A stretch of DNA of 64,000 nt from a bacterium (GTDB lineage: Bacteria; UBA8248): the NCBI GenBank assembly GCA_965204535.1, contig OZ241996.1:32001-96000 (forward strand), given 5' to 3'. The translations under genes and the position numbers were made by a program. A model generated the notes under the pieces. The model ran no database searches. It was not told the origin of the DNA and worked only from the letters and a program-made list of their open reading frames with translations. Shown piece after piece: positions 18,965 through 59,985 of this stretch. Position 1 is the first letter of the stretch, and every line of letters starts with the position of its first letter.

Positions 18965-19522
18965 GGGGGTTGTTGAAAAAATCCTGTGGAGCGATTTTGG
19001 TTGAGCGCACGCTTTTGAAGTTCACTCCCCCCTTGAGGCGGCTGTTGAAAAACCTCTCCTCGTGCAGAATTGGCACCGCCGTCATTCCGGCGAAAGCCGG
19101 AATCCATTTTCGCCTTTGCCTTTTCGCTTCCTCACTCAGACGTCTTTACTCCCGGGCAGGGAGAATCAGAATCAAACACAAAAACGAAAGGCGAATTCTC
19201 TGGATTCCGCGTCCGGACGCCTCGCAACAACAAGGTCGTGGCCGCTCCGCCCGGTGAAAAGTCAAAATGGATTCCGGCTTTCGCCGGAATGACGAACAAA
19301 CCCACACCGCCTCATTCTGCGCGGCAGTGTTCCCATCCGCCTCATCCTGAGTAGCGGCGAAGCCGCGTATCGAAGGTCAAACGCGATTGATGAATGAGCG
19401 TTTGTTTTCGTCCCGACGCAAGCCCTCGCCCTTCGATACGCCGCCTTCGGCGGCTACTCAGGGTGAGGAAAGAGGGGTTGGCGGTTGCCAGGGGACGCAT
19501 ACGGGGCTTTTTCAACAACTCC
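18965..19522. repeat. Composite repeat island bounded by GGGTTGTTGAAAAA / TTTTTCAACAACTCC; contains MITE copy 2 (19081-19293)
   Basis: Inverted terminal motifs; internal segments shared with 56615-57035, 11251-11285 and 54288-54500. Confidence 0.7.
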
Positions 19523-31837: not shown

Positions 31838-32593
31838 ATGAGCGGTTTCGAGGGGCAAAGCGCCGTCGTCACGGGCGCGGCGACGGGAATCGGTGAATCC
31901 ACGGCGAGAATCCTGGCCCAAAGGGGGGCGGAAGTCACCGTCATGGATTTCGACGCGGAAGGCGCCGAAGCCGTCACGAAATCCATCAACGAAAACGGAG
32001 GTGCTGCTCACTGCGCCGTCGTCGACCTCACCGACTGGGAGGCGACCGAAACTTCAATCAATGAGGCGCACCACCGGGCGGGCCGTATTGACGTTCTCGT
32101 GCACAGCGCGGGTGGTTTTCCGCAATACGTGAGCCTGCTCGATTGCCCCGTGGACGCCTGGGACGGCGTGGTGAACTCGAACCTGAAATCCATGTTCTAT
32201 CTCCTGAAAGCCGCCGCCCCCCTCATGGTGGCGGCGAACTACGGACGCTTCGTGACGCTCTCGAGCATGGCGGCGCGCAGCGGCGTGAACCCGAATCCGC
32301 CCCATTACACGGCTGCCAAGGCGGGCGTGCTCGGCCTTACCCGCCAGGCGGCGCGCGAACTCGGGCCGTACGGCATCACCGTGAATGCCGTGGCCCCGGC
32401 CAACGTGCAAACACCGAGAGGGCTCAAAATCAGGACGCCCGAGCGCATCGCCCACATCGAGAAGTCATCGCCCGTGGGCAGACTCTCGGAATCCCACGAG
32501 ATAGCGGAAGCCGTCGTTTTCCTCTGCAGCAGGGAGGCCGGCTACATCACCGGCGTCACGCTCGACGTGAACGGCGGCGCGACGATGGTTTGA
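31838..32593 (+). CDS. Short-chain dehydrogenase/reductase
   Basis: TGAATGIG, YTAAK, ITVNAVAP. Confidence 0.9.
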   Translation: MSGFEGQSAVVTGAATGIGESTARILAQRGAEVTVMDFDAEGAEAVTKSINENGGAAHCAVVDLTDWEATETSINEAHHRAGRIDVLVHSAGGFPQYVSLLDCPVDAWDGVVNSNLKSMFYLLKAAAPLMVAANYGRFVTLSSMAARSGVNPNPPHYTAAKAGVLGLTRQAARELGPYGITVNAVAPANVQTPRGLKIRTPERIAHIEKSSPVGRLSESHEIAEAVVFLCSREAGYITGVTLDVNGGATMV

Positions 32594-43932: not shown

Positions 43933-44501
43933 GGGACTGTTGAAAAAGTCTAATGAAGGAGGGTTGCAGGTTTTGCAGGGACAGGTCGCGACCTGTCCCT
44001 ACGGACGTGCGTGGTTATCCTTCGTCATTCCGGTGTCGGAGCCGACCAATGCGGGGCTGTTGAAAAACCCCTGTAGGGGCCGCATACATGCGGCCCGTTC
44101 TGTCAGTGAAAGAAAAGGGGAAAGGTTCGTCATTCCGGCAATCAATGCCGACCGGGGAGGGAGGGATTGCCCGGAATCCAGAGCCGATGAGAGAAACCGC
44201 GGTTCAGGGAATCCCGCCACCCGTATCGGTTCGCCGCATTCCAGTTTTTCTTCCATTCCCGTCCGCCTGGATTCCGGCATTCGCCGGAATGACGGCGGGG
44301 TGGTGCGATCTCGAATGATGCGGGAGGATGATTTCGCGCCCGATATGGGACGATCCCGAAATGCGCCGGAATGACGAGCGAATACCGCGCCCGTTGTATG
44401 GGCGGTTCGCGACCCCCCCTACGGTCGGTAGCACTCCGATGAAGATGGCCCTGACCGGCTACATACGTCGAATCTCGGAATCAGGGCTTTTTCGACAGCC
44501 C
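43933..44501. repeat. Composite repeat island bounded by GGACTGTTGAAAAA / TTTTTCGACAGCCCC
   Basis: Contains GTAG REPs and GTCATTCCGG units shared with 11352, 17453-17519 and 17570. Confidence 0.7.
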
Positions 44502-44522
44502 CTCTCCGAACGGACGGCCGCT

Positions 44523-54183: not shown

Positions 54184-54771
54184 GGCGTCGTTGAAAAACC
54201 CTGCGCACGACCCCTGCCATTGCAGGCGGCGAATGCGGCGCAATCCCCCTCCTCATCCTGCGCCGCCGCCCGGTTTCGGTTTTGGCCGTCATTCCGGCGA
54301 AAGCCGGAATCCATTTTCGCCTTTGCCTTTTCGTTCCCTCGTTCGGATGTCTTTACTTCCGGGCGGGGAGGATCGGAATCGAACACAAAAACGAAAGGCG
54401 AATTCTCTGAATTCCGCATCCCGACGCCGCGCAACAACAAGGTCGTGGCCGCCCTGCCCGGTGAAAAGTCAAAATGGATTCCGGCTTTCGCCGGAATGAC
54501 GGCTTCGTGGTGGACCGCATCAGCCGTCTCCGTAACGACGCCCGAATCCGGGCGCACACGAAATGCATCGTCAATTCCTACCGAGGAGGTTTATCAACAG
54601 CTCCTTGAAGGGTTGTTAAACCCGGAGAGGGAAAAGTTATGTGTGTAGGGGTCGCATATATGCGACCCGTTTTTTCACCCACTACGAGGGCCGCATGTAT
54701 GCGGCCCCTACACTCCCTTCGGCAAGGAAGAATCCTATTGCCGTCATTGCAGGGGTTTTTCAACAACCCCC
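54184..54771. repeat. Composite repeat island with MITE copy 3 (54288-54500) and REP doublet (54645-54710)
   Basis: GTTGAAAAA / TTTTTCAACAACCCC ends; shared internal units. Confidence 0.72.
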
Positions 54772-54803: not shown

Positions 54804-55262
54804 CTAAATACTCACCTGGAAATTGGGCAGGCGCACGCCTCCTCCCGCATCGGCCGGGGCCGCGCTCAACTCCTCGAGCGTGGTTTCGCGCAGCGTCTTG
54901 TCGATGGCGTCTTCGAGTTTTTTCCAAAGCGCGCGGCTTCCGCACACCGGAATGTTCGGACACGGCGCCGAGGGAGGCTCATCGCCGCAATCGACGGGCT
55001 GAATCGTCTCGCCCACCGCGCAGAGAACGTCGCGCATGTTGATCCCGGAGGGCGGCAGCGCGAGGATGTAGCCGCCTCCCGGCCCCCTCGTGCTGCTCAC
55101 CAGAGAGGCCCTGCGCATCTTCACGAACAATTGTTCGAGATAGTGCTGGCTGATTCCGAGCTTGCCGGCAATCTGCGGCAGGGGCACGGGATGCGTCTGC
55201 GAATGCCGGGCCAGCTCAATCATGGCGAGAACGGCGTATCGCCCCTTGGTCGATATCTTCAT
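54804..55262 (-). CDS. Rrf2-family transcriptional regulator (IscR/CymR-like, 3 C-terminal Cys)
   Basis: MKISTKGRYA, ISQHYLEQLF, STRGPGGGY, VDC..(8)..C..(5)..C. Confidence 0.9.
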   Translation of the reverse strand: MKISTKGRYAVLAMIELARHSQTHPVPLPQIAGKLGISQHYLEQLFVKMRRASLVSSTRGPGGGYILALPPSGINMRDVLCAVGETIQPVDCGDEPPSAPCPNIPVCGSRALWKKLEDAIDKTLRETTLEELSAAPADAGGGVRLPNFQVSI

Positions 55263-55300
55263 CGGCGGCATCCTCTCATCGTCTCTCCCTGCCCCGAACG

Positions 55301-56110
55301 CTAAACGAGCGCACCACGCCCTGAGGGAATCTTCGTCTGTCCACTCCCGGCGATCGCGCAGGCAGGACAATCCGGATCCTGTGCCACGCGCACGCTCCCG
55401 ACGGCGTTTTTCCGTAAATCGGCCGTCATCAGCCTGTTCGACCAGGCCGGCGCAAGCCCCCTGAGAACACGCAGCGCGTCTGCGGCCTGCGCCATGCCCA
55501 CGAAACCGGCCACCGCGCCGAAAACCCCCGCATCCCCGCAGTCGAGGCCGCGGGCGTCCTCGCCCTCCTCGCCCACCAGACACCGCAGGCACGCGCTCCG
55601 CCCCGGCAGAATCGTCATCATCTGGCCGAAAAAGCGTAAAATCCCGCCCATCACCCACGGCTTGCCGGCTGCAACGCAGGCGTCGTTCAGCGCGAGTTTG
55701 GCGGCCAGGTTGTCGCTTCCATCGATTACTACGTCATAGGGCGCGATGATTCTGGCGGCGTTCCGGCGCGTGAGTTTCTGGGGAATCATGTCCACCGCTA
55801 CCTCGGCGGAGAGCCTGAATATGGAATCGGCGCCCGAGTCCACCTTCAGGCGGCCGATGTCCTCGGTCCGGTGGAGAATCTGGCGGGCCAGGTTGTCGAG
55901 CGTCACCACATCGTGATCCGCAAGGCCGATGCGGCCCACGCCCGCCGCCGCCAGCGCCAACGCAGCGGGACAGCCCAGGCCGCCCACCCCCACGATGAGT
56001 GCGGATGAGCGCGCCAGAGCGCTTTTTTCGCTCATGCGCGCCGTGGATGCGCTCACGGACGCCGGCGGCGCTTCACCGGGCAACCCCGCGCGAGGATTAT
56101 GAAGGCTCAC
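55301..56110 (-). CDS. ThiF/MoeB E1-like adenylyltransferase, catalytic subunit lacking the N-terminal RYSR motif
   Basis: GVGGLG, DHD..NLARQ, DGSDN, CLRC, LDCGDAGV, CPAC; start at GTG 56110 (GTGA overlap) or ATG 56035. Confidence 0.85.
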   Translation of the reverse strand: MSLHNPRAGLPGEAPPASVSASTARMSEKSALARSSALIVGVGGLGCPAALALAAAGVGRIGLADHDVVTLDNLARQILHRTEDIGRLKVDSGADSIFRLSAEVAVDMIPQKLTRRNAARIIAPYDVVIDGSDNLAAKLALNDACVAAGKPWVMGGILRFFGQMMTILPGRSACLRCLVGEEGEDARGLDCGDAGVFGAVAGFVGMAQAADALRVLRGLAPAWSNRLMTADLRKNAVGSVRVAQDPDCPACAIAGSGQTKIPSGRGALV

Positions 56111-56601
56111 GCGCTTGTCTCCTCGAGAATTTCCAGATCGCTCTCGATAAAGGTCTTCTGCTCCGCATCCCAGGAATACACCTTCTGCCCGAGCACCATG
56201 CCTTCGCGCACGCTCATGACGACGTGCTCGGCATCGGGAAACGCCGGGATATCCCCGAAAGGAACCGCCGCATCCACGTCTTCCTGCGAGAAATAGGCAT
56301 CCTCGTCCGGGTGGCTGTGGAATATGCCGCGAACCACCTCGCCCGCCTTCTCCGCTTCTCTCACGATGCGCTCGAACTCGAAGGGATCGATCAAGAATGC
56401 GCGCCGCGCCGTCCGCGGATAAAATTCGGGGTCCTTCTCGTGCATCTCGTTCTGCACGTTCTTGCAAGGCAGGAGGGCGAGAGTTTCTTCCGCACCATCC
56501 CTCCCGCGCGGAGGCCCGATTATCAAGCCACAACACTCGTCGGGATACGCCTCGCGCGCGTGGCGGTGCATCGTCTCCACCTGTTCACGATTCAGACGCA
56601 A
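56107..56601 (-). CDS. JAMM/MPN+ metalloprotease (Mec/CysO-cysteine peptidase-like)
   Basis: YPDECCG and FHSHPD..AYFS.ED JAMM motif. Confidence 0.9.
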   Translation of the reverse strand: MRLNREQVETMHRHAREAYPDECCGLIIGPPRGRDGAEETLALLPCKNVQNEMHEKDPEFYPRTARRAFLIDPFEFERIVREAEKAGEVVRGIFHSHPDEDAYFSQEDVDAAVPFGDIPAFPDAEHVVMSVREGMVLGQKVYSWDAEQKTFIESDLEILEETSA

Positions 56602-56614
56602 GTCAAGTCCCCTT

Positions 56615-57035
56615 GGGGTTGTTGAAAAAATCCGAAACCCTGGATTTGTCGTATGTAACCGACCGACGAGAGAGAAAAATCACTCCCCCCTTGAGGGGGA
56701 GTCGAAGAGCTGAGGGCGTAAGCCCGAAAGCGATTCGGTGGGGGGTATAACTCGGATTGGCGATAAAACGCATTTTACCCCCCACCGCATCAGCCTTCGC
56801 AAAAAACGCTCGGCTTCTGCGACTCCCCCTCAAGGGGGGAGTGAACTTCAAAAGCGTGCGCTCAACCAAAATCGCTCCACGGGACTTTTTCACCTCCCCT
56901 TTTGTCAGGGGGGTATAAAAAGGCGATGCGCCCCCCGCCGGGCTGAGAGGGTTTTGCTTTTTCTTGCCCCCCTGACAAGGGGGGGTAGGGGGGGTTGCCT
57001 TTGTCCCCTGAGGAGAGAGACTTTTTCAACACCCC
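56615..57035. repeat. Composite repeat island inside the cys operon
   Basis: GGGGTTGTTGAAAAA / TTTTTCAACACCCC ends; paired CTCCCCCCTTGAGGGGGAG units; segment shared with 18985-19036. Confidence 0.72.
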
Positions 57036-57039
57036 CTCC

Positions 57040-57978
57040 TTAGCGCGCTTCGCTCAGGTACCTGTCCCCACCGTCGGGAAACAGGGTGACGATAACGCCC
57101 TTGCCTATCTGCTTCGCCACCTCGCGCACGCCCACGAGCGCGGCGCCCGCCGAATGCCCGATGAACAGGCCCTCTTCCTTGGCGATGCGCTCGGCGAGAT
57201 CGTAGCTTTCCTCGGTGCTCGCCAGAATCAGATTGTCGTGCACGCTCTCATCGTAAATCTTCGGGCGAATGGCCGTGGGGATGTGCTTCATGCCCTCCAG
57301 CCCGTGAAACGATTCTGACGGCATGACCGCATGCACCACGACGTCCGGTTTTCTCTCTTTCAGGCCGCGTCCCGTGCCCACCAGGGTGCCCGTGGTGCCG
57401 AGACCCGCAATGAAATGCCCCACGCGCCCGCCTGTCTGCTCCAGAATCTCGGACGCCGTGGTCTCGACGTGGGCGAGCGGGTTCGCCGGGTTGTCATACT
57501 GACACGGCAGGAAATACTTCTCCGGCTCGTCCTGATACATCTTCGCCGCGAGGCGCTGCGCGCCGTCCGAACCCTCCAGGGGATCCGATAAAACAATGTC
57601 GGCCCCGTAGCCTTTCAAGGTCGCCTTGCGCTCGTCGCTCGCGTTCGCAGGCAGGACGAGGCGGACCGGAATCCCGAGTGCCGCGCCGATCATGGCGTAG
57701 GCGATGCCGGTGTTGCCGCTCGTGGAATCGAGCAGAATCCTGCCGGGGCGCAACTCTCCCGTTTCCAGGCCGTCCTTCACCATGAAGAGCGCCGGCCTGT
57801 CCTTCACCGAGCCGCCCGGGTTGAACCATTCCGCCTTGGCGTAGACCTCCACGTCCGGGAATTCGCTCTCGAACATCTTAATCTTGAGCAGGGGGGTGTT
57901 GCCGATACACTTGATGATTGGGGAATCCCCTAAATTTCTGAACGCGCTCGCGGGATTCTCCACCGTCGATTCGACCAT
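57040..57978 (-). CDS. cysM: Cysteine synthase B / CysM-type PLP enzyme
   Basis: IGNTPL, NPGGSVKDR, TSGNTG, QYDNPAN, GLGTTGT, PDGGDRYLS. Confidence 0.85.
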   Translation of the reverse strand: MVESTVENPASAFRNLGDSPIIKCIGNTPLLKIKMFESEFPDVEVYAKAEWFNPGGSVKDRPALFMVKDGLETGELRPGRILLDSTSGNTGIAYAMIGAALGIPVRLVLPANASDERKATLKGYGADIVLSDPLEGSDGAQRLAAKMYQDEPEKYFLPCQYDNPANPLAHVETTASEILEQTGGRVGHFIAGLGTTGTLVGTGRGLKERKPDVVVHAVMPSESFHGLEGMKHIPTAIRPKIYDESVHDNLILASTEESYDLAERIAKEEGLFIGHSAGAALVGVREVAKQIGKGVIVTLFPDGGDRYLSEAR

Positions 57979-58011
57979 TGATATGGCCCTCGCACTTAGC
58001 TCCTGAAAATC

Positions 58012-58662
58012 TCAGGAAAAATTCGCACGCGCCTCCATCAGGCCGTGCGAAAAATCGAATCGGGCCTGCGCAGTCGACCCCACTGTATCCATTTCATCCA
58101 CCAGATGCCGCAAGGCTCTCGCGGCCAGCCATGCGCCCAAGGCGCCCTGGGCCGCCACTGTCGATGCGCCCCCTGGAGATGGCGTCACGTCCGGCTTCCC
58201 GAAACCGCCGGGTCCCTCGAGAATTTCTCCTGACTCACCACGTGAGACGCCTCGCAGCGTGACTTTCGCCGAAGCCTCGAATCTCTCATCAACCGGGGCT
58301 CCTTCACCGCCCAGCCGGATGAGGACGTCGAAAACCTCCCCCGCTCCCTCGCCCGGGCGAACGGAGACCAGCCTCGAATCGGGGTTGAGCCTCTTGAGGC
58401 CACTCCCCAGGCTGCCGCCGAAGAAGGCGGAGAGCGGCGATTTCGGCTTGATCCCGTCGCTCTCATCGAGCGGACACCAGCCGATGCGTCCCACGCCCGC
58501 CGCCGCCAGATAGACCAGGGCGGTGAGCGCCGCGCTCTCCTCATCCTCCGAATATGCGATGAGGACGGAAGACGCCAGCAGGCGCTCCTGGCCGGCTCCC
58601 CCCACTTCGGGGAGAAGAATGTGGCGGCTGTAGCGCTGAATCTGCTCTTCGCTCAAGCCCAA
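58012..58662 (-). CDS. Degenerate ThiF/MoeB paralog retaining the RYSRH arginine-finger motif (putative inactive E1 subunit)
   Basis: TTG start after GAGGAG; LSEEQIQRYSRHILLPEVGGAGQERL, YLAAAGVGRIG, LNPD; no GxGxxG, no NLxRQ, no CxxC. Confidence 0.75.
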   Translation of the reverse strand: MGLSEEQIQRYSRHILLPEVGGAGQERLLASSVLIAYSEDEESAALTALVYLAAAGVGRIGWCPLDESDGIKPKSPLSAFFGGSLGSGLKRLNPDSRLVSVRPGEGAGEVFDVLIRLGGEGAPVDERFEASAKVTLRGVSRGESGEILEGPGGFGKPDVTPSPGGASTVAAQGALGAWLAARALRHLVDEMDTVGSTAQARFDFSHGLMEARANFS

Positions 58663-58693
58663 GGGGCGAATCTCCTCTCGGGGGTGCGGACGA

Positions 58694-58972
58694 TTACAGG
58701 CCGCCCGCGATGGCCGGCACGATGGAGACCTCATCCCCATCGCTCACCGCCGTTCCCTCTCCCTGCAGAAAGCGGATGTCCTCCTGGTTCACATAAATGT
58801 TCACGAAACGCCGCAGCTTGCCCTCCTCGTCATAGAGGCGCTGGCCGATGCCCGCGAACTGGCCCTCGAGGTTCGCGAGCACTTCCTTCACGTCCGCGCC
58901 CGCGATCTCCACGGCGTCCTGCTGCTGTGTGAACTCCTGCAAAGGTGTCGGAATACGAACCGTTACCGCCAT
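58694..58972 (-). CDS. MoaD/CysO ubiquitin-like sulfur carrier ending in GG-L
   Basis: VRIPTPL, RRFVNIYVN.EDIRFL, SIVPAIAGGL*. Confidence 0.92.
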   Translation of the reverse strand: MAVTVRIPTPLQEFTQQQDAVEIAGADVKEVLANLEGQFAGIGQRLYDEEGKLRRFVNIYVNQEDIRFLQGEGTAVSDGDEVSIVPAIAGGL

Positions 58973-59025: not shown

Positions 59026-59985
59026 CTAACGAAAATGCTGTTCCAGACTATAATATCTCTCCCAGCCGTCGGGAATGACGACCACCACGTTTTCCTCGGG
59101 ACTCATCCGCCGCGCCACCTCAAGAGCCGCATTTACCGCCGCTCCCGCCGAAATGCCTGCGGCCATGCCCTCCTCGCGGCTCAGGGCCTTGCTCATCTCG
59201 TAGGCGTCCAAGTCGCTCACCGGCATCACCTCGTCGATGATCGCCCGGTTCAACACCGCAGGCACGAAGCCCGCGCCGATTCCCTGAATCTGGTGCGGGC
59301 CGGGTTCCCCGCCGGAAAGAACGGGGGATGCGGCGGGCTCCACGCCGATGACGAGCGTTTCGGGCCTCCTCTCCTTCAGGACCTCCCCCACTCCCGTGAT
59401 GGTGCCTCCCGTCCCCACGCCCGCCACGAAGGCGTCTATGGATTCCGCGCCCATGTCGCGCAGAATTTCGCGCGCCGTGGTTCTTCGGTGGATCTCCGGG
59501 TTGGCCGGGTTGTTGAACTGCTGGGGCATGAAGTAGTCCGGGTTCTCCTCCAGGATGGCTTCGGCCAGCACGAGCGAGCCGTACATGCCGCCTTCGCTGG
59601 AGCTGAAAACCACCTCGGCCCCGTAGCCCGTGAGCAGGGAGTTGCGCTCGTGGCTCATGCTCTTGCTGAGCACGATGATCGTCCTGTAGCCGCGAATCGC
59701 GCCGATGAGCGCCAGGCCTATCCCCGTGTTGCCGCTCGTGGGTTCGATGATCGTCCCGCCGGGCTTCAGGAGACCGCGCCGCTCGCCGTCGAGCACCATG
59801 CTGAGCGCGATGCGATCCTTCACGCTTCCACCGGGGTTGTATTGCTCGAGTTTCGCGAATACGCGCGCGCCGGACGCATCGGGCAGGCGTTGCAGCTGAA
59901 CGAGGCTCGTGCCCCCGATGCGATCGATGAGCGAGGGAAGCGCCCTCAGAATCTGGGGCGGGCGACCCCGTGTTCCCAATGCCAT
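59026..59985 (-). CDS. cysK: Cysteine synthase A
   Basis: NPGGSVKDR, EPTSGNTG, QQFNNPAN, GVGTGGT, HQIQGIGAGF. Confidence 0.9.
   Translation of the reverse strand: MALGTRGRPPQILRALPSLIDRIGGTSLVQLQRLPDASGARVFAKLEQYNPGGSVKDRIALSMVLDGERRGLLKPGGTIIEPTSGNTGIGLALIGAIRGYRTIIVLSKSMSHERNSLLTGYGAEVVFSSSEGGMYGSLVLAEAILEENPDYFMPQQFNNPANPEIHRRTTAREILRDMGAESIDAFVAGVGTGGTITGVGEVLKERRPETLVIGVEPAASPVLSGGEPGPHQIQGIGAGFVPAVLNRAIIDEVMPVSDLDAYEMSKALSREEGMAAGISAGAAVNAALEVARRMSPEENVVVVIPDGWERYYSLEQHFR

Follow-up and report, generated by a model that had tools for sequence, protein, structure and literature searches.

A degenerate and a beheaded E1 gene in a cysteine-synthesis operon of Nitrospinota: a candidate heterodimeric bacterial E1

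Can the working parts of a homodimeric E1-type adenylating enzyme be divided between two genes of ordinary bacterial metabolism? The question is raised by a 64,000-nucleotide stretch of bacterial DNA (positions 32,001 to 96,000 of contig OZ241996.1, assembly GCA_965204535.1, lineage UBA8248), referred to here as the window, in which one cysteine-synthesis operon holds two genes that by descent are members of the MoeB/ThiF superfamily. Both lie on the minus strand. The product of the first, which we call psE1 (58012–58662), keeps the N-terminal RYSRH motif and has lost the ATP-binding motifs; that of the second, thiF (55301–56110), keeps the ATP site and lacks the N-terminal arginine-finger segment. 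These reciprocal losses were the starting point of the original prediction of a heterodimeric E1, and they are borne out in coordinates, strand and motifs. The most likely reading, to which we assign a probability of roughly two in three from the sequences and their analysis, is that psE1 and ThiF form an asymmetric heterodimer that adenylates CysO, the ubiquitin-like sulfur carrier of the operon.

The psE1 gene starts with a TTG codon at 58662, behind GAGAGGAG, and its product of 216 residues is identical to a database protein (P0007). RYSRH is followed by IAYSEDEES at the P-loop site, with YSEDEES in place of GxGxxG, and by GALGAWLAARALRHL; none of the motifs NLxRQ, DxxDN and CxxC is found in the sequence. 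The NCBIfam MoeB models, run against a 242-residue reading of the gene, match residues 26–93 to MoeB positions 8–72 with an E-value of 1.6e-13, a stretch of about 65 N-terminal residues that includes RYSRH. The Pfam ThiF family (PF00899) scores 13.7 bits, below its cut-off of 28.1, and over about the first 47 profile positions only. A profile built from 67 psE1 members reaches much further, aligning positions 5–186 with 5–210 of Escherichia coli ThiF (E = 1.5e-10) and 2–187 with 3–212 of MoeB (E = 6.7e-8); among solved structures it also finds Uba4 (E = 1.5e-14). The AlphaFold2 model of psE1 has a mean predicted local distance difference test score (pLDDT) of 71.8 and a predicted template-modelling score (pTM) of 0.77, the final 26 residues falling below a pLDDT of 50. 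In a Foldseek search with this model Uba4, ThiF and MoeB rank at the top (query TM-scores 0.59–0.66), followed by SAE1 (1y8q_A) and APPBP1 (1r4m_A), the inactive subunits of the SUMO and NEDD8 E1s. Judged by profile and model together, psE1 is a full-length homologue of the E1 adenylation domain. Its C-terminal helix, predicted at residues 169–188, aligns with the GVLGxxxGxxQAxEAxKLL helix of canonical MoeB.

Conservation within the psE1 family is concentrated in a few places. Alignments of 27 and 67 sequences, in which overall identity drops to 34–45%, contain 18 and 11 invariant columns, respectively, and Arg10, Tyr11, Ser12, Arg13 and His14 are each kept in at least 90% of the rows of both. 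The blocks that stand out are EEQIQRYSRHILLPxVGGxGQERLL, YLAAAGVGRIGW, LNPD, the GALGAWLA helix and a terminal VGSTxQARFD. The last of these lies in residues 191–216 (window 58012–58092), where Gly195, Ala200, Phe202 and Asp203 are invariant in the 27 sequences; despite this conservation the region has a pLDDT below 50 in the model of the monomer, and this end of psE1 may perhaps fold only against a partner.

The product of thiF has 269 residues if translation starts from the GTG at 56110 and 244 if the ATG at 56035 is the start. It carries GVGGLG, NLARQ, DGSDN, the zinc-site pairs CLRC and CPAC, and LDCGDAG with the crossover-loop cysteine, and it matches Pfam ThiF with 212.9 bits (cut-off 28.1) over profile positions 14–238 of 238. 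In an alignment of 22 orthologues with eight canonical MoeBs, GxGxxG, NLxRQ and the lysine that follows it, DxxDN, the two CxxC pairs and the crossover-loop cysteine are invariant; ThiF has only this crossover-loop cysteine and no inserted catalytic-cysteine domain. Where the canonical sequences carry LSxxQIxRYSRHILLPEVG, ThiF has no such segment. The original prediction held that no RYSR motif is gained from either start, and this extends to the relatives: neither in the window nor in the 24 loci of relatives (24/24) does the reading frame before the P-loop contain an RYSR-like motif. The start lies 11–15 codons before the P-loop in many loci and 32–40 codons before it in others, among them the window, in which a GAGGAG ribosome-binding site precedes the GTG 40 codons upstream of the P-loop. 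One GAGGAG site precedes the start in both short and long forms. A frameshift or a missed N-terminus was considered and rejected, as the frame further up overlaps with the JAMM gene and in every locus is free of RYSR-like motifs. Directly after its start the long form has a 25-residue low-complexity insert (SLHNPRAGLPGEAPPASVSASTAR; window 56036–56110), which is not the canonical helix.

At the level of motifs the pair has the make-up of a heterodimeric E1, psE1 keeping the N-terminal arginine without an ATP site and ThiF holding the ATP site. In the mechanism that we propose, psE1 and the beheaded ThiF would pair 1:1 in an asymmetric complex with a single ATP site, psE1 replacing the second subunit of the usual MoeB/ThiF homodimer and lending its N-terminal helix and arginine to the active site of ThiF. 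The JAMM peptidase of the operon would first remove the extra C-terminal leucine of CysO. The heterodimer would then adenylate the Gly-Gly end of the carrier, sulfur loading would convert CysO to its thiocarboxylate, and with this a synthase of the CysM type would make cysteine. We infer the pairing, the provision of the arginine in trans and each of these enzymatic steps.

The order cysK–cysO–psE1–cysM–JAMM–thiF holds in 26 loci taken from species-representative genomes and scored wherever the contig allows. Within them psE1 is the fastest-evolving gene: in the deepest loci it is 40–46% identical to that of the window, against 57–79% for the other five genes. A rate two to four times that of its neighbours, like the Pfam score below cut-off, might be taken to mean that psE1 is a functionless duplicate of thiF in decay, and a ratio of non-synonymous to synonymous substitution rates (dN/dS) near 1 and frequent stops had been named as the marks of this. 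The outcome went against decay. The dN/dS of psE1 against the window is 0.23–0.47 in all 26 loci, compared with 0.02–0.20 for cysK, cysO, cysM and JAMM and 0.12–0.42 for thiF, the ranges of these comparison genes excluding two partial matches at contig ends. No psE1 has an internal stop; in two flagged matches the gene is intact and the stop is its own, natural one, beyond which the reading had continued. The length is nearly constant (mostly 213–234 residues), the 18 and 11 invariant columns persist at low overall identity, and the position in the operon is conserved in 26 of 26 loci. By these measures psE1 is under purifying selection, and a decaying duplicate is so improbable that we reject it as far as the sequence evidence goes.

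The family comprises about 65 clusters, mostly of 213–234 residues and down to about 38% identity, and the few clusters with names are assigned to Nitrospinota or Nitrospinae. A profile search of 1.84 billion representatives returned eight matches at E ≤ 1e-30; with so few strong matches, the Nitrospinota psE1 family itself must be small. The survey for co-occurrence that had been suggested was made in 51 Nitrospinota genomes. Full-length psE1 is present in 30, and 29 of these also hold a beheaded ThiF orthologue (55–100% identity); in the exception (G022), psE1 lies on a contig of 3,353 nucleotides, which ends after cysM. In a 31st genome (G009), which belongs to another family within the same taxonomic order, the operon is divided between two contigs. 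Here psE1 is less degenerate, with GLGGVG and two CxxC pairs retained and NLxRQ absent, and ThiF is again beheaded. Eighteen of the other 20 genomes have only matches of 35–41% identity in frames of about 400 residues or more, like the rhodanese-MoeB of the window's genome. Of the last two, G043 gave no match in this survey and G040 a 100-residue fragment only, 48% identical, at a contig end. Both psE1 and beheaded ThiF are missing from two complete genomes (G023 and G034) that belong to the same genus as the window. In one genome (G029), two copies each of psE1 and beheaded ThiF are found on different contigs; as its contamination is estimated at 16%, the duplicates may stem from two organisms.

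Proteins with a similar pattern are frequent among the next-best matches of this profile search. A motif script run on database proteins P0127–P0273 of at least 185 residues printed 57, of which 49 have an RYSR-type motif and are without either the P-loop or NLxRQ, the remaining eight not fitting the RYSR pattern; many of the 49 still hold two CxxC pairs. RYSR is invariant in an alignment of 30 degenerate relatives. Dozens of these proteins (within P0133–P0266) are metagenomic, have 190–260 residues and keep RYSR, GQ, YLAAAGVG, LNPD and often both CxxC pairs; they are without P-loop, NLxRQ and DxxDN, yet are annotated as adenylyltransferases by their sources. In the ESM Atlas the nearest clusters are unnamed, have 190–210 residues and are commonest in Binatota and Myxococcota (scores 0.94–0.95), which we take as a lead only. 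A scan of 1/64 of a metagenome collection with 28 degenerate ThiF-like proteins, the psE1 of the window and one canonical MoeB as queries gave 78 loci, by patterns that also occur in canonical MoeB; one of them (L068, 1,058 nucleotides, too short to show neighbours) has a degenerate gene.

More telling for the proposed pairing are proteins in which a dead and a live domain are found in one chain. Two of them (P0143 and P0274; 448–449 residues) consist of a psE1-like N-domain followed by a complete active domain without an RYSR segment of its own. A second fusion family has the same two-domain make-up and comprises 37 clusters (P0260, P0393–P0427 and P0270), mostly of about 460 residues (433–490), several of them named Clostridia; the sources call them 'ThiF family adenylyltransferase'. 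In the N-domain of this family an arginine equivalent to Arg10 is present in at least 90% of the 37 rows, and FSEDxxKAS stands where the P-loop would be. Profile–profile alignment with hhalign places psE1 on this N-domain, not on the active domain, with a probability of 99.2%, an E-value of 6.3e-20 and 31% identity over 144 columns. From their sequences, the two domain types appear to have been joined in nature at least twice.

The AlphaFold2 model of the Clostridia-family fusion (pLDDT 81.8, pTM 0.87) superimposes through both domains on BilD (8tz0_A), residues 12–462 of the model aligning with a Z-score of 32.9 and a root-mean-square deviation of 3.0 Å over 377 residues. Uba1, UBA6 and UBA7 are also matched through both domains (Z 28–30, about 400–420 residues); MoeB and ThiF chains cover the second half only. 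By this prediction the Clostridia fusion would be a minimal pseudo-dimer of one inactive and one active domain, like BilD and Uba1. Neither a cysteine domain nor a ubiquitin-fold domain is present in the fused proteins.

The fusions raise a broader possibility: that one-active-site E1s made of a dead and a live domain recur within the ordinary sulfur-carrier E1s of bacteria, with three or more separate origins (the two-gene pair of Nitrospinota, the Clostridia fusion and the P0143-type fusion), and that the ThiF-like proteins of other phyla that have kept RYSR only, a large class without a name, would do the same job. We put this forward tentatively.

Several points weigh against the heterodimer. 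Since psE1 and thiF share one operon, their co-occurrence is not independent evidence of an interaction. In a mirror-tree comparison of six gene-distance matrices from 21 loci and the window, psE1 and ThiF have a partial correlation of 0.23 once CysK and CysM are controlled for, no higher than other gene pairs, CysO and JAMM reaching 0.64; all pairs correlate at 0.92–0.97, and for psE1 and ThiF we regard the comparison as uninformative. Residues 1–18 of the fusion model, which include the arginine, have a pLDDT below 50, too low to place the arginine at the ATP site. A quick tree, rooted at the midpoint, with SH-aLRT values as its only support and the careful search unfinished, unites the 23 beheaded ThiFs of Nitrospinota in one clade (support 95) and puts the active domains of the fusions in other clades, as two groups among other canonical MoeBs. 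Because they are not closely related to the pair in the window, the fusions support the heterodimer indirectly only; modelled as they are, they are the best indirect support for it. The remaining point concerns the arginine itself. The accessible text of a 2026 paper (PMC13139853) describes Arg11 of ThiF and Arg14 of MoeB as arginine fingers supplied by the neighbouring subunit, and calls them not essential; the same text gives E. coli TcdA as having none and the R59A substitution in Tcd1 as cutting the product ratio by just 26%.

If fingers are non-essential and TcdA does without one, as this text has it, a beheaded ThiF homodimer could be active alone, and psE1 could be a non-catalytic accessory elsewhere, holding CysO or docking it to CysM or CysK, or regulating the pathway. 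Besides the reported dispensability of the finger, such a role would agree with the retention of every other catalytic motif by ThiF, with the lack of a specific coupling to psE1 in the mirror-tree comparison and with the position of the psE1 gene between cysO and cysM, not next to thiF. It accords poorly with the fact that conservation in psE1 is highest in precisely the segment missing from ThiF, and with the two separate fusion families that unite both domain types, one of them a predicted E1-type pseudo-dimer. Known dead E1 domains serve as dimer partners of an active domain (SAE1, APPBP1 and the N-domain of BilD). We therefore consider it unlikely that ThiF works on its own.

Alternatively, psE1 might pair with ThiF as a structural half only, standing in for the second subunit and leaving the enzyme with one site, its arginine non-catalytic and RYSRH kept as an interface or lid. 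The low confidence of the N-terminal segment in the fusion model would allow this, as would the report, in the accessible part of PMC13139853, that the finger is non-essential in MoeB, ThiF and Tcd1. Conservation points the other way: Arg10 and Arg13 stand in at least 90% of 67 psE1s, Arg10 in at least 90% of the 37 fusions, and RYSR is invariant in the 30 degenerate relatives, which is tighter than a mere interface helix needs. This is an argument and not a test, and on its strength we hold a purely structural role to be improbable. We continue to favour the catalytic heterodimer. Of the original inference, the parts that have gained are the reciprocal losses, now seen to be conserved, the purifying selection, the whole E1 fold and the fused forms; its word 'obligate' has become doubtful, given the fingers reported as non-essential in the accessible text of PMC13139853, and an arginine in trans may or may not be needed.

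How does the pair compare with characterised systems? In mechanism the closest known are SAE1–SAE2, NAE1–UBA3, BilD and yeast Tcd1–Tcd2. The E. coli systems MoeB–MoaD and ThiF–ThiS (1jw9/1jwa and 1zud/1zfn) belong to the same superfamily, their E1 chains are matched by both window proteins through sequence or fold, and the same adenylation of a Gly-Gly carrier is predicted for the window. They are symmetric homodimers with two sites, each subunit having finger and ATP site, whereas in the window these are split over two products. A 2025 E1 review, in its accessible part, likewise describes MoeB and ThiF as homodimers with ATP bound by both subunits. SAE1–SAE2 and NAE1 (APPBP1)–UBA3 combine an inactive and an active subunit around one ATP site, and the same division is predicted for psE1 and ThiF; the window operon differs in being without a catalytic-cysteine insertion, a ubiquitin-fold domain and an E2, and the most likely end product of its carrier is a thiocarboxylate instead of a conjugate with a protein. 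For the pair in the window, an independent origin in bacteria is suggested by the quick tree.

Tcd1–Tcd2, which acts in the formation of cyclic N6-threonylcarbamoyladenosine in tRNA, is described in the accessible text of PMC13139853 as a ThiF-like heterodimer in which one subunit, an impaired paralogue, gives the arginine finger to the active one, as proposed here. This system is eukaryotic and acts on tRNA instead of a ubiquitin-like carrier; Tcd1 still binds nucleotide, and the same text describes no beheaded subunit. BilD, of the Bil antiviral ubiquitination system (8tz0/8tyz), joins bacterial inactive and active domains in a pseudo-dimer with one site, and the accessible part of PMC10557695 (a 2023 preprint) gives BilD as the one exception among known bacterial E1-like proteins, all others forming homodimers. 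Among structures, BilD also matches the model of the fused relatives best (Z 32.9). It is a single chain in which a helical insertion bears a cysteine, and together with an E2 it attaches a ubiquitin-like protein to other proteins in phage defence; the window has two genes and a setting in cysteine synthesis.

The operon itself recalls the type 4c operons of Iyer, Burroughs and Aravind (2006; PMC1779556), in which a carrier, an E1, a JAB peptidase and a cysteine synthase occur together. According to the accessible part of that paper the E1 is fused to rhodanese, and the word 'inactive' is used five times, always of E2/RWD domains and never of a second E1; in the window the E1 is unfused and is accompanied by a second E1 gene, which is dead. 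The mycobacterial CysO–CysM–Mec+/MoeZ pathway has the same set of carrier, E1, JAMM and cysteine synthase. The words 'heterodimer', 'inactive' and 'arginine' do not occur in a 2025 review on ThiF-like enzymes (PMC12596934), and a two-gene bacterial E1 with a dead subunit was not found in full-text searches, which did not cover subscription journals. The earlier statement that no characterised bacterial example is known has to be narrowed: BilD has been solved, as one chain (8tz0), and it is for the two-gene sulfur-carrier form that the accessible literature gave no example. What is new, as far as the accessible literature goes, is a two-gene dead/live E1 pair in a cysteine-synthesis operon; the pairing of dead and live domains is itself familiar from BilD, SAE1–SAE2 and NAE1–UBA3.

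If one-site dead/live E1s do recur among bacterial sulfur-carrier E1s, as tentatively suggested above, the pair would be a living model of the step from a MoeB-type homodimer to a heterodimeric E1 of the eukaryotic type, and the one-site dead/live E1 would be no speciality of eukaryotes or of defence systems. Eukaryotic E1s are thought to derive from MoeB/ThiF homodimers through duplication and the loss of one active site. We know of no intermediate forms described from ordinary bacterial metabolism. A conserved two-gene pair with reciprocal losses would allow three questions to be put to simple proteins: why selection favours asymmetry, how much the arginine finger contributes to catalysis and how a dead subunit is retained. 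In addition, a large set of database 'adenylyltransferases' is flagged here as lacking every ATP-binding motif.

The other genes of the operon also lie on the minus strand. At its head is a cysK-type cysteine synthase of 319 residues (59026–59985; TIGR01139, 394.2 bits, cut-off 350.95), which precedes cysO in all of the 26 loci whose contig extends to it. The CysO/ThiS-family carrier that follows (58694–58972, 92 residues; Pfam ThiS, 63.9 bits, cut-off 22.5) ends in AGGL, that is, in Gly-Gly plus one residue; the carrier of G009 (L108) ends in AGGC, with cysteine as the extra residue. Such an end fits the trimming predicted for the JAMM/MPN+ peptidase of the operon (56107–56601, 164 residues; Pfam Prok-JAB, 70.8 bits, cut-off 25; HSHPD motif). 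The cysM-like synthase between psE1 and the JAMM gene (57040–57978, 312 residues) scores 345.9 bits with TIGR01138, under the cut-off of 394.2, and 217.7 bits with Pfam PALP. Thirty nucleotides downstream of thiF begins a gene for an Rrf2-family regulator, IscR/CymR-like and of 155 residues (54804–55271; TIGR00738, 123.2 bits, cut-off 73.3), for which the equivalog models of IscR and of CymR score under their cut-offs. Neither an E2 nor a ubiquitin-fold domain was named when the seven operon proteins were scanned with Pfam and NCBIfam, and a rhodanese domain is absent from both E1 genes of the operon; on another contig the same genome has an ordinary rhodanese-MoeB of 399 residues with RYSRH and a P-loop.

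Contigs about 90–96% like the window from four metatranscriptome runs (three from sponge, one from coral) cover parts of psE1 and span the cysO–psE1 and psE1–cysM junctions; none of them covers 55301–55915. Because they come from relatives and such libraries can hold DNA, they do not show transcription.

About 440 bp of non-coding DNA separate cysM from the JAMM gene in the window, and most of it is an element (56615–57036, no strand assigned) resembling a miniature inverted-repeat transposable element (MITE). It belongs to a family of about 420–590 bp with inverted GGGGTTGTTGAAAAA ends and nested G-rich palindromes, whose other members lie at 18966–19522, 44053–44502 and 54184–54770; the window has 11 occurrences of the GGGGTTGTTGAAAAA motif where 0.16 would be expected. 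In L001–L003 the gap between cysM and JAMM at this site is 245–325 bp; in L008, with no JAMM match kept, it is about 460 bp, and in the other loci with both genes the gap is about 10–30 bp. The stretch 56615–57036 has a very high summed depth in the metatranscriptome contigs, as expected of a multi-copy repeat. Within the element downstream of the Rrf2 gene, 54285–54503 is a 40-nucleotide inverted repeat, 93% complementary, with 139 nucleotides between its arms.

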